This document shows positions 10,606-14,735 of a stretch of 14,735 bases of DNA, in pieces. Position 1 is the stretch's first letter. The number at the start of each line of letters is the position of its first letter. This DNA comes from Candidatus Nanohaloarchaea archaeon. GTDB taxonomy: Archaea; Nanohalarchaeota; Nanosalinia; Nanosalinales; Nanosalinaceae. Location: positions 1-14,735 of the forward strand of contig JBDGSE010000011.1 in assembly GCA_042217695.1 (NCBI GenBank), in the 5' to 3' direction. The translations under genes were made by a program, and so were the position numbers. The notes under the pieces are model-generated. The model was not told where the DNA came from, did not search any database, and was given only the letters and a program-made list of their open reading frames with translations.

Positions 10606-10610
10606 AAAAA
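10606..10610 (-). terminator. Oligo-T terminator-like tract after SRP RNA
   Basis: TTTTT on the minus strand 3-4 nt past the predicted 3' end of the RNA. Confidence 0.45.
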
Positions 10611-10613
10611 CAG

Positions 10614-10877
10614 CGGGTTCCCAGGGGTCGACGCCTTCCAACGGTCGGTGAGTCCTCGAAGGGCTTCAGATCCGCCACCCCCCGAACAGCCTGCACGGTG
10701 CTTAGGGCTGCTCCCGTCAGGGCCTGGCCCGGTTCACACAGTGCAGACTCCCGGAGGACGGACCCTCGACAGCCTCTTCAGAGGGCCGACCGCCGGAAGT
10801 ACACCTTCCCCTGGTTTTCGGCCCCTGCGTGTAGAGGATTTCAGGTTACAGGCGACCCCGAACCGCCCGGCCTACCC
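10614..10877 (-). ncRNA. ffs: Archaeal signal recognition particle RNA (7S)
   Basis: 5' Alu-like GGGUAGGCCGGGCGGUUCGGGGUCGCCUGUAACCUGAAA; helix 8 GGGCCAGGCCC-UGAC-GGGAGCAGCCC; long self-complementary helix 5 (CCAGGGG/CCCCUGG, GGCGGUCGG/CCGACCGUU). TTTAAC box 31 nt upstream. Confidence 0.93.
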
Positions 10878-10920
10878 ATAAAGACAAAGACATGTTGGTA
10901 ATGTTAAAAGTCTACTCGGT

Positions 10921-12368: not shown

Positions 12369-12450
12369 ACTGGAACCAAATCGCCAATATAGCGGCGGGA
12401 TGGCAGACTCGCACCCGGAAGGTGATTGCACTGCAAACCCGTCAAAACAT

Positions 12451-12578
12451 GCCGGGATGGCAGAGTAGTTATGCAGCCGCCTGCAGCACCTCAAGTCCCG
12501 AGAGGGACGGGGACCAAGAAGAGCTCCACTCTTCGATTCAGCTAGCGGCGTACCGGGGTGCAAATCCCCGTCCCGGCT
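12451..12578 (+). tRNA. tRNA-Cys(GCA) with 57-nt intron at canonical position 37/38 (intron 12487..12543)
   Basis: Acceptor GCCGGGA/TCCCGGC with discriminator U; D arm GCA..TGC; anticodon stem GCCGC/GCGGC with CT-GCA-G|A loop after splicing; T arm CGGGG-TGCAAAT-CCCCG. Spliced length 71 nt, CCA not encoded. Confidence 0.92.
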
Positions 12579-12643
12579 TTAACTGGGATACAGATCGCTG
12601 GAACGGATCGACTGCCGTTCCGTGCGGATAACCGTCCCGGCTT
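12568..12643 (+). repeat. 12-bp direct repeat of the tRNA-Cys 3' end (CCGTCCCGGCTT at 12568-12579 and 12632-12643)
   Basis: Exact match read directly from the sequence. The copies are separated by 52 nt. Confidence 0.85.
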
Positions 12644-12663
12644 CACTGACAGAGAGGGCGCCG

Positions 12664-13062
12664 ATGACAGCTGACATCGACACTGCGATAGCCGTAGTCT
12701 TCACGGGGGAAAAATACCTGGTGATGAAACGTGCCCCGGACAAACCCACCTTTCCCGGCGTATGGGAGTTCCCCGCTGGCATCGTTGAAGAGGATGAATC
12801 CCCGGAAGAAGCTGTTCTACGCGAGCTTGAGGAGGAATCCGGCCTGGCGGGTGAGATAGTCCGCAGGGGTGAACCGTTCGAGGACGATCGGGCCGAGGGC
12901 CGGTTAAGACACCACCCCTTCCTCGTAGAAGTCGATTCCAGGGATATAGAGCTCTCCAGGGAACACGTCGAATATCAATGGATAGAACTGGAAGAACTAC
13001 ACTCGCTGAAAACCAGGGAGAACTATACTGATGTTGTTGAAGCGGTGGGGATTTCGCTGTGA
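12664..13062 (+). CDS. Nudix hydrolase
   Basis: Complete Nudix box GIVEEDESPEEAVLRELEEESGL and LSREH motif. ATG 12664 with GAGGG upstream is preferred over the track GTG at 12622. Confidence 0.9.
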   Translation: MTADIDTAIAVVFTGEKYLVMKRAPDKPTFPGVWEFPAGIVEEDESPEEAVLRELEEESGLAGEIVRRGEPFEDDRAEGRLRHHPFLVEVDSRDIELSREHVEYQWIELEELHSLKTRENYTDVVEAVGISL

Positions 13063-13469
13063 AGGAGCCGGAAGTCGTAGAAGTTGCGACCGCGGTCACC
13101 TACAACCCGGAACGGGAAGAGTTCCTGCTTCTAAAACGCGCGGATACGCACGAACCTTTTTCCGAGAAATGGGAATTCCCTGCAGGGATGATTGAAGGAG
13201 AAGACCCCAAGCATGCAGCGTTGAGAGAGCTTGAGGAGGAAACCGGGTTGAAAGGAGAGTTCTTGAGAGAAGGGAAAAGGTTCAACGTGGACACGGGAGG
13301 AGATACCTACCGGGTTCACCCTGTTCTCGTAGCCGTCAACTCGGAAGAAGTCGAGCTCTCACGGGAACACGTCGACTACCGCTGGGTCTCGAGGGATGAA
13401 GCGCTGGAGATGGATACTGTTAAAGGCTTCCGGAAAGACCTGGAAAACGTGGGTGTGATAGATGGCTGA
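13059..13469 (+). CDS. Nudix hydrolase (paralog of upstream gene)
   Basis: WEFPAGMIEGEDPKHAALRELEEETGL and ELSREHV. GTGA overlap with the previous stop. Confidence 0.9.
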   Translation: MKEPEVVEVATAVTYNPEREEFLLLKRADTHEPFSEKWEFPAGMIEGEDPKHAALRELEEETGLKGEFLREGKRFNVDTGGDTYRVHPVLVAVNSEEVELSREHVDYRWVSRDEALEMDTVKGFRKDLENVGVIDG

Positions 13470-13878
13470 GTTTCCCGTGGCCGTGACCGGTATCGTTACA
13501 AGGAGAGGGAAAATCCTGGTGGGAAAAAAGAAGGGGTCCGACTCCCCAGGCGAGGAGTGGCGCCTACCCGGCGGCCGTCTGAAAGAAGACGGAGACCTCG
13601 AGGAGACGTTGAAACAGAATATAGAGGAAGAGACAGGGCTCGAAGTGGAGGTACACCAGATAGTGGACGCCTACTTCGACGAGGATACAGGCTCTCTCGA
13701 GGCAGTTTACCACTGTGAGGCTGAGGGAGAGGCTGAACCTCTTGACATGGAAGAGGTACGCTGGGTGCAGCCCGGAGACCTTGAACAGGAACTGGGAGAG
13801 AACGCTGCCCAGGTCTTTTCCGAACGGGAACGGATGGAAGACTTCCGGGAAAAACTGGAGAAAATGCCGACTTTCTAG
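13462..13878 (+). CDS. Nudix-fold protein with degenerate Nudix box
   Basis: WRLPGGRLKEDGDLEETLKQNIEEETGL. GGTGTGA SD-like sequence upstream and 8-nt overlap with the previous gene. Confidence 0.8.
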   Translation: MAEFPVAVTGIVTRRGKILVGKKKGSDSPGEEWRLPGGRLKEDGDLEETLKQNIEEETGLEVEVHQIVDAYFDEDTGSLEAVYHCEAEGEAEPLDMEEVRWVQPGDLEQELGENAAQVFSERERMEDFREKLEKMPTF

Positions 13879-13939: not shown

Positions 13940-13947
13940 TTTTTAAG
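13940..13947 (+). promoter_or_regulatory. TATA-like box upstream of the cysS leader
   Basis: TTTTTAAG. TTTAAG begins 28 nt before ATG 13970, the same spacing as at 1291, 8313, 8834 and 9254. Confidence 0.6.
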
Positions 13948-13969
13948 AATTCCACGACCATTCCGGGGT

Positions 13970-14002
13970 ATGAGCAGTGGTCGTTTTTGTCCGTGTCGCT
14001 GA
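13970..14002 (+). CDS. Putative leaderless leader peptide MSSGRFCPCR (candidate Cys-sensing uORF)
   Basis: ATG AGC AGT GGT CGT TTT TGT CCG TGT CGC TGA: two Cys codons near the stop, 69 nt upstream of cysS, at the leaderless position relative to a TATA box. Confidence 0.5.
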   Translation: MSSGRFCPCR

Positions 14003-14071
14003 ACAGGTTTCTCTAGAACCAGTGGCTGGGCTGCTCGAAATCTTTAACCGTGTTCTGACGAGGTTTAAACC

Positions 14072-14735
14072 ATGGCGCTGAAACTTTACAACACCCTGAG
14101 CCGGGAGAAAGAAGAGTTCAAACCGATAGAGGACGGAAACGTAAAGTTTTACTCCTGTGGACAGACGATATACGACGATCTACACATAGGAAACGCCCGT
14201 GCCTACGTGGTCTGGGACACTCTTACGCGTTATTTAAAGTGGAAAGGCTACTCGGTGCGTCACGTCCAGAACATAACGGATGTCGGACATCTAACCGATG
14301 ACGGCGACCAGGGAGAGGACAAGGTGGAGAAACGCGCCTCGGAGCTGGGTATGGAGCCGATGGAGCTCGTCGAGACCCAGATAGAACGTTACTTTGAAGA
14401 CACCGCAGCTTTAAACGTCCAGCGCCAGGACATCGTACCAAGGGCCACCGGCCACATAAACGAGATGATTAACTACGTCCAGAAGATACTGGACAACGGC
14501 TACGCCTATGAGAACAACGGCAACATCTACTTCGATGTTGACTCGTTTGCGGAAGACTACCCCTACGGCGACATGGCGAAGAAAGATCTCTCACAGTTAA
14601 AGGAAGAGGCTGTGTCCCGCGTCGACCCGGACGACAACAAGAAAAACCAGTACGACTTCGCGTTGTGGCTTAAAGCGCCCGAGGAGCACCTGATGAAGTG
14701 GGACGCCGAGTTCCATGTCGACGGCGAACTCGTGG
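14072..14735 (+). CDS. cysS: Cysteine--tRNA ligase (5' part, truncated by window end)
   Basis: MALKLYNTLSREKEEFKP..FYSCGQTIYDDLHIGNARAY..VQNITDVGH..EDK and KKNQYDFALWLK. GAGGT SD at 14060-14064. Not in the ORF track because no stop falls in the window. Confidence 0.96.
   Translation, partial: MALKLYNTLSREKEEFKPIEDGNVKFYSCGQTIYDDLHIGNARAYVVWDTLTRYLKWKGYSVRHVQNITDVGHLTDDGDQGEDKVEKRASELGMEPMELVETQIERYFEDTAALNVQRQDIVPRATGHINEMINYVQKILDNGYAYENNGNIYFDVDSFAEDYPYGDMAKKDLSQLKEEAVSRVDPDDNKKNQYDFALWLKAPEEHLMKWDAEFHVDGELV

Follow-up and report, generated by a model that had tools for sequence, protein, structure and literature searches.

A conserved, codon-specific leader upstream of nanohaloarchaeal cysS and its proposed role in sensing charged tRNA-Cys by +1 frameshifting

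The window, that is, the whole stretch of DNA analysed here (14,735 nt; Candidatus Nanohaloarchaea archaeon, contig JBDGSE010000011.1), ends within cysS, the gene for cysteinyl-tRNA synthetase (PF01406; cysteine--tRNA ligase), which is truncated by the contig end (14072..14735; features are on the forward strand unless stated otherwise). Further upstream lies a tRNA-Cys(GCA) gene (12451..12578), called by ARAGORN with introns allowed, though missed under default tRNA detection, and carrying a 57-nt intron at the canonical position; introns were present in 17 of the 25 tRNA calls in the window's genome. This tRNA gene has its own promoter in the window, and a stable hairpin (12392-12450, -21.4 kcal/mol) that repeats the first ~15 nt of tRNA-Cys lies between the promoter box (about 12361) and the tRNA. 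Similar inserts precede tRNA-Cys in nine other genomes of the phylum. Three tandem NUDIX hydrolase genes (12622-13878) lie between tRNA-Cys and cysS; many relatives have a NUDIX gene coupled to cysS. The archaeal SRP RNA (RF01857) is encoded on the reverse strand at 10610-10882.

Upstream of cysS, a TATA-like box (13940..13947, with TTTAAG at 13942-13947) is positioned 28 nt 5' of an ATG at 13970, which opens a 10-codon upstream ORF, MSSGRFCPCR (ORF0, 13970..14002), the putative sensor. Its TGA stop codon occupies 14000-14002, leaving 69 nt to the cysS ATG at 14072. TATA-like boxes in the window's genome lie most often 27 to 31 nt 5' of the ATG, which makes a leaderless start of ORF0 plausible, and the leader transcript probably begins at 13970. 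Among 15 leaders of the cysS type, 13 have a box at -27 to -32 relative to the uORF, and two, those of the window's genome and of genome G041, have a box at -26 to -32 relative to cysS itself. In the window this second box (TTTAAC, 14043..14048) lies 29 nt 5' of the cysS ATG; it is a possible basal leaderless promoter and may let cysS bypass the leader in this genome. The SD of cysS (GAGGT, 14060..14064) matches the hexamers found most commonly 5' of starts in the window's genome (AGGTGA/GAGGTG). A recurring SD variant with C at the fifth base (GCAGCTGA/GGAGCTGA) was observed 5' of cysS at five other loci and in several cassette leaders.

ORF0 contains three further features. An SD-like hexamer (13977..13982), complementary to the 16S rRNA 3' end and a putative stimulator of a +1 shift, also contains a GTG in the +1 frame. 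It is followed by a putative shift site (13985..13990), consisting of a P-site UUU and the sensing Cys codon UGU, with a run of five U residues at 13984-13988. The first codons also form the 5' strand of a helix, P1 (13972..13978, spanning codons 1-3), whose 3' strand lies at 14030..14036. From the shift site onward the +1 frame is open throughout the leader (13986..14081) and passes through the cysS SD to a TGA at 14079-14081, giving a 10-nt overlap with the start of cysS. The TTTAAG box, the 10-codon ORF, the 69-nt gap, the SD and the second box had all been described in a sequence-only reading of this DNA, and each was borne out together with its coordinates. Neither the frameshift cassette nor the openness of the +1 frame had been noticed in that reading.

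To assess conservation, regions upstream of cysS and of tRNA-Cys were gathered from 70 genomes of the phylum where assembled, both regions not being present in every genome. At least 34 of these 70 genomes, from four families, carry a homologue of ORF0 in which an NUU codon stands immediately 5' of a Cys codon (degenerate in G058). The sequence-only reading had named conservation of a short Cys-containing uORF as a check on its proposal. Two further homologous leaders came from new metagenome contigs, bringing the total to 36; the other six of the eight matches in that metagenome scan were discarded, five as chance matches in a long bacterial-looking ORF and one as a duplicate of G041. Twenty of the 36 leaders stand directly 5' of cysS, and 16 stand 5' of tRNA-Cys or of genes between tRNA-Cys and cysS; in some genomes the leader precedes a tRNA-Cys-(NUDIX)-cysS unit. 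The opening pattern of the uORF matched once each in 13 of the 70 genomes, always 5' of cysS or tRNA-Cys, as against a single match in the reversed control, which places the uORF beyond chance. In the DNA examined, the Cys leader was absent from about half of the 70 genomes. No such leader was seen 5' of cysS at eight archaeal loci outside the phylum, and 57 further outside loci, almost all bacterial, gave no convincing cysS leader (six loose matches in five loci). Five matches were obtained in a viral scan, none of them with the leader design.

Among the homologues, insertions in the uORF are in frame (6 or 9 nt) and located 5' of a fixed four-codon cassette, and the Cys codon stays in frame. 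It swaps between TGT and TGC, and many homologous uORFs contain a single Cys codon where the window has C-P-C. The Phe codon at the shift site is always TTT, and TTC accounts for 71% of the 902 Phe codons in the cysS genes. Neither the residues 3' of the sensing codon nor the peptides of the +1 frame are conserved in sequence or length. We conclude that the element is a real, conserved, codon-specific regulatory leader.

The cassette has a conserved order: a hexamer complementary to the anti-SD, a slippery NUU codon, and the Cys codon. The 16S 3' end reads GGATCACCTCC in four relatives. When the 13 nt 5' of the slippery codon were paired with this tail, the median duplex energy was -7.6 kcal/mol for 57 cassettes, with Cys and other sensing codons, and -1.9 kcal/mol for 171 control windows; a duplex of -4 kcal/mol or better, with a spacer of 2-4 nt, was present in 56 of 57 cassettes versus 17% of control windows. 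The P-site codon is TTT in 43 of the 57 and NTT or CCY in all 57, a count to be read with the fact that the non-Cys cassettes were found with a pattern demanding such a codon. Full re-pairing of the E- and P-site codons (three of three letters) would be possible after a -1 shift in 41 of 57 cassettes and after a +1 shift in 30 of 57, and six cassettes retain a single letter after +1. As re-pairing is at least as good for -1 as for +1, the direction of the shift rests on which frame is open.

The frames were compared by translating from the NUU codon in the shifted frames, with dinucleotide shuffles as the null. In 28 of 29 leaders, where 8.2 were expected, the +1 frame ran without a stop from the shift site until 12 nt 5' of the target; the -1 frame was open in one of 29. 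Taking the worst case per genus, 15 of 16 were open in +1 versus 5.2 expected (P about 2e-8; kin are not fully independent), and because the null ignores kinship and the coding of ORF0, such P values represent the upper end of the evidence. Among seven leaders found later, the +1 frame reached the next gene in all seven and the -1 frame in two. Over the 36 leaders, +1 was open in 35, the exception being the degenerate leader of G058, and -1 in three; a -1 shift was rejected since that frame is closed in 33 of 36. A -2 slip or a hop would enter the same frame as +1, and the sequence does not separate these events.

The end of the +1 frame is also positioned in a consistent manner. In 19 of 20 cysS-type leaders its stop codon falls at -9 to +10 nt from the cysS start, mostly as ATGA or GTGA overlaps, the 10-nt overlap of the window not being the commonest coupling geometry; both metagenome leaders, which had been picked by pattern alone, obey the rule. 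After the ORF0 stop, the +1 frames of 14 cysS-type leaders contain no Cys codons where 9.2 were expected, as would be required of a frame translated when Cys is short. The first set included 14 leaders of the tRNA type, in which the +1 frame continues into the tRNA. Its stop coincided clearly with the next start in seven of these, loosely in two and not in four, and one was cut; in G032 the frame crosses the intron and ends on cysS itself. Cys codons in the +1 frames of the tRNA-type leaders are not depleted (7 versus 8.1 expected).

Six loci carry a different element 5' of tRNA-Cys, namely leaderless, acidic, Cys-rich uORFs with CxCxxCxC tails that lack a slippery site. Five of the six close the +1 frame before the tRNA. 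These uORFs possibly represent metal-binding peptides or a stall-only sensor. A cassette and a CxCxxCxC tail occur together in four genomes.

We consider it likely that these features constitute a sensor of charged tRNA-Cys which operates by a hungry-codon +1 frameshift followed by termination-reinitiation. The transcript would start at or near the AUG at 13970. A ribosome arriving at codon 7 would hold peptidyl-tRNA-Phe on UUU and the Cys codon in its A site, and its 16S tail would pair with the SD-like hexamer 2-4 nt upstream. With plentiful Cys-tRNA, UGU would be decoded, translation would stop at 14002, and cysS expression would remain low because 69 nt is too far for reinitiation and because P1 can close over the start. 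Coupling in Haloferax is reported to require an overlap or a gap of less than about 20 nt (PMC10666635). With scarce Cys-tRNA, the ribosome would slip +1 on UUU-U, slow A-site decoding being described as favouring +1 shifts (PMC5009743). The slipped ribosome would then read the Cys-free +1 frame through the leader, stop in the cysS start region and reinitiate on cysS. The additional CysRS would restore charging and thus provide negative feedback, and ribosome cover of the leader may also shield it against aCPSF1/FttA termination. We infer the pausing, the slipping, the reinitiation and the direction of control from the geometry of the leader and the conservation of its parts.

The same cassette was found before other synthetase genes. 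Of 61 synthetase loci inspected in five genomes, 27 had a cassette within 420 nt, and the codon at the sensing position was cognate to the synthetase at 28 of 28 sites (Val, Leu, Ser, Thr, Pro, Gly, Tyr, Lys and Phe). In the window's genome, cassettes precede thrS, glyS, serS, leuS, the family-II proS and a tyrS start at the end of a contig. Two Trp-codon cassettes also precede a GNAT-M20 peptidase-trpS unit. None was found within 420 nt of ileS, metS, aspS, trpS itself or the family-I proS in four of the five genomes; such misses do not amount to absences because some start calls are wrong. Two ProRS genes are present in the window's genome, one of family II with two Pro cassettes and one of family I without. 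A leaderless-only scan of the window's genome recovered the cysS case alone, the other cassettes having come from the cassette scan. A TTCTAAA(A)CC-like motif also recurs about 40 nt 5' of synthetase starts.

A pattern that ends before the sensing codon gave 96 matches in 48 of the 70 genomes and one in the reversed control. For a blind test, 40 of the 96 matches were hand-picked from genomes outside the five. Thirty-six lay 5' of a synthetase gene, and in all 36 the sensing codon was cognate (Ser, Thr, Gly, Tyr, His) and the +1 stop fell at -9 to +13 nt from the synthetase start. The remaining four comprised two Leu-codon cassettes coupled to proteins without a Pfam match, one Ile-codon cassette 5' of, and not directly coupled to, a PLP-dependent enzyme that we take from its sequence to be threonine dehydratase-like, and one match in a long ORF. 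Together, the cassette with a swapped specifier codon appears to serve at least ten other synthetases in the phylum. We lean towards the broader view that it is a portable +1 cassette, with the A-site codon as specifier, which governs most nanohaloarchaeal aminoacyl-tRNA synthetases, and that, where it stands before tRNA-Cys, starved ribosomes would translate through the pre-tRNA to cysS.

Tandem Trp cassettes occur at three loci, one of them that of the window's genome. There, the +1 frame of the second cassette is a 230-aa GNAT protein that heads the trpS operon and whose conservation in G001 begins at the shift site; in G005 the second +1 frame is a 468-aa ORF heading the trpS unit. The protein in the second Trp +1 frame is a candidate for a gene product that needs the frameshift.

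The leader could instead act on transcription: aCPSF1/FttA would terminate prematurely in the U/C-rich leader unless blocked by a ribosome stalled on the U5 run or by ribosome cover, with coupling to cysS secondary. An aCPSF1-type gene is present in all five genomes tested, which means that the effect may be due in part or entirely to termination control, and aCPSF1 is described as recognising U-tracts (PMC13675443). The placement of leaders 5' of a tRNA gene and the several tRNA-type +1 frames that traverse the leader without meeting a start are consistent with such control. Termination without a shift, however, leaves the open, Cys-free +1 frame and its stop on the start codon unexplained, and CCC/CCT sites have no U-run; we regard this explanation as unlikely.

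Competition between starts in two frames was also considered. Here, the GTG at leader nt 8-10 would start a +1 ORF coupled to cysS, and ORF0 ribosomes would block or free that GTG according to their wait at the Cys codon, such that starvation would lower expression. Every intact cassette contains a GTG in the +1 frame that could serve as a start; it lies 11 nt 5' of the sensing codon in 35 of the 36 Cys leaders and in all other cassettes, and usually no stop interrupts the +1 frame from nt 5 onward. However, ATG never replaces GTG among the Cys leaders, and an ATG version of the pattern gave two matches in 70 genomes, neither before a synthetase, compared with 96 for GTG (the two patterns differ in strictness). 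The distance of the GTG is fixed to the sensing codon and not to the 5' end, and the flanking nucleotides preserve their match to the anti-SD by two distinct routes. This model would also leave the invariant NUU/CCY codon unexplained. We regard start competition as unlikely too.

The sequence-only reading had proposed a cysteine-codon attenuator in which stem a buries the cysS SD and a ribosome stalled at the Cys codons favours a competing stem b, freeing the SD; release of P1 might have the same result. All three helices can be drawn in 13970-14090, with isolated energies of -1.4 (a), -6.5 (b) and -8.9 kcal/mol (P1), but the leader region folds no better than its shuffles (z 0.09-0.18), so that chance could account for the stems by themselves, and Rfam returned no match over 13940-14075 at E<=10. 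Stem b had a probability of 0.91 in naked RNA, which fell to 0-0.48 once either Cys7 or Cys9 was masked by a ribosome. With three mask sizes, SD accessibility was 0.22-0.30 for the stalled state versus 0.24-0.36 for a ribosome at the stop; that is, folding constrained by a ribosome at codons 7-9 left the SD closed and no more accessible than at the stop. Among homologues, the ribosome-binding site was easier to open in the stalled state than in the stop state in one of 14 (-14 to +12) and, for a 30S footprint of -20 to +13, in five of 15. The a/b segment is absent from close homologues, the Cys codon is mostly single, and many homologous leaders precede a tRNA gene, which has no SD. The SD-sequestration switch was rejected on the modelling in the window and in homologues and on the lack of conservation of stems a and b, and we consider it very improbable. 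What survives of that proposal is its sensor: the MSSGRFCPCR uORF most likely senses Cys-tRNA and controls cysS.

P1, the last listed of the three pairings, is the one that is conserved. It joins the first codons with a downstream pyrimidine-rich strand, and the duplex at the 5' end beats shuffles (p<=0.05) in 12 of 19 AUGAGYAGY-type leaders (p=0.056 in the window), with compensatory changes in G012 and G002. P1 ends 12-18 nt 5' of the cysS ATG in nine of 14 leaders; this position, together with the lower opening energy in five of 15, suggests that P1 may contribute in some genomes. It may damp initiation or hinder de novo loading of 30S subunits at cysS. A short peptide or +1 peptide acting in trans, or a neutral element, is hardly credible: the six acidic Cys-rich uORFs resemble small metal-binding peptides, but neither the sequence after the sensing codon nor the +1 peptides are conserved in sequence or length, and the identity of the sensing codon follows that of the downstream synthetase in all 36 cases.

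The frameshift sensor that we favour resembles several known systems in part. T-boxes use one leader design with an exchangeable specifier codon to place many synthetases under the control of tRNA charging. The leaders described here share the single design and the exchangeable codon; in contrast to the T-box, no structured RNA is involved, and the codon stands in a translated frame and would be read by the ribosome. Neither a stem I with specifier loop nor an antiterminator was found (no Rfam match; fold z about 0).

The closest likeness is to prfB, which encodes RF2 and has a short ORF0, an internal SD 3 nt upstream of CUU_U/UUU_U, a slow A-site sensor and negative feedback (PMC5009743). The leader has UUU_U at 13985-13988 and an SD-like hexamer a few nucleotides 5' of it. 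In prfB, however, the A-site codon is a UGA stop and the product is RF2, whereas here it is a sense codon cognate to the regulated synthetase, in archaea and before many genes. In most leaders the +1 frame would be a disposable link to a separate gene: the +1 peptides before cysS are not conserved, and a functional protein across the shift, as in prfB, was seen only in the Trp/GNAT case. The coupling itself has the geometry of termination-reinitiation pairs, with an overlap or very short gap (-9 to +13 nt) between stop and start.

In ketolide-induced ermCL and in pheL, a frameshift in the leader ORF likewise takes translation on into the spacer, with activation of the downstream gene as the result, shifting in pheL being described as incidental (PMC5009743). 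The ermCL leader responds to an antibiotic and acts by unfolding the mRNA, whereas here the trigger would be the cognate aminoacyl-tRNA and the new frame ends on a start codon. The polycysteine sORFs of the mycobacterial 'Cys ribulon' are leaderless, as ORF0 probably is, use Cys codons as sensor and have a cysteine-related target (10.1101/834739). Such attenuators have two or more consecutive Cys codons and an SD-hiding duplex freed by stalling; the window has C-P-C with no polycysteine run, no conserved SD-sequestering duplex was found, and the +1 frame is open. In yeast Ty1, ABP140 and EST3, the P-site tRNA slips while a sense codon awaits slow decoding (PMC5009743), as proposed for the leader; the yeast shifts yield a fusion at a set ratio, in contrast to the feedback on a charging enzyme proposed here. 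By its sequence features, the leader would work like prfB autoregulation joined to termination-reinitiation, yet by the features tested it falls outside the prfB, T-box and polycysteine attenuator families.

No description of this synthetase-leader frameshift system was found in searches of an open-access library, nor was one of an amino-acid-sensing programmed frameshift or of a cellular archaeal +1 frameshift. A 2016 review of recoding states that no example was known of starvation frameshifting with a starvation-specific function (PMC5009743), and a 2021 archaeal review gives one demonstrated cellular -1 case and +1 for a virus only (PMC8211752). If the proposed mechanism is true, these leaders would supply both starvation-specific frameshifting and a cellular archaeal +1 case, with ten or more codons as a built-in control series, and would make it possible to test directly whether an SD stimulates frameshifting on archaeal ribosomes. 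The cassette would amount to a codon-programmable sensor of roughly 100 nt. Before tRNA-Cys, one transcript would toggle between tRNA precursor and mRNA, with even the intron translated. For these minimal symbiotic archaea, the leaders would constitute a frameshift-based equivalent of the T-box regulon and would show regulation of the supply of translation without transcription factors.
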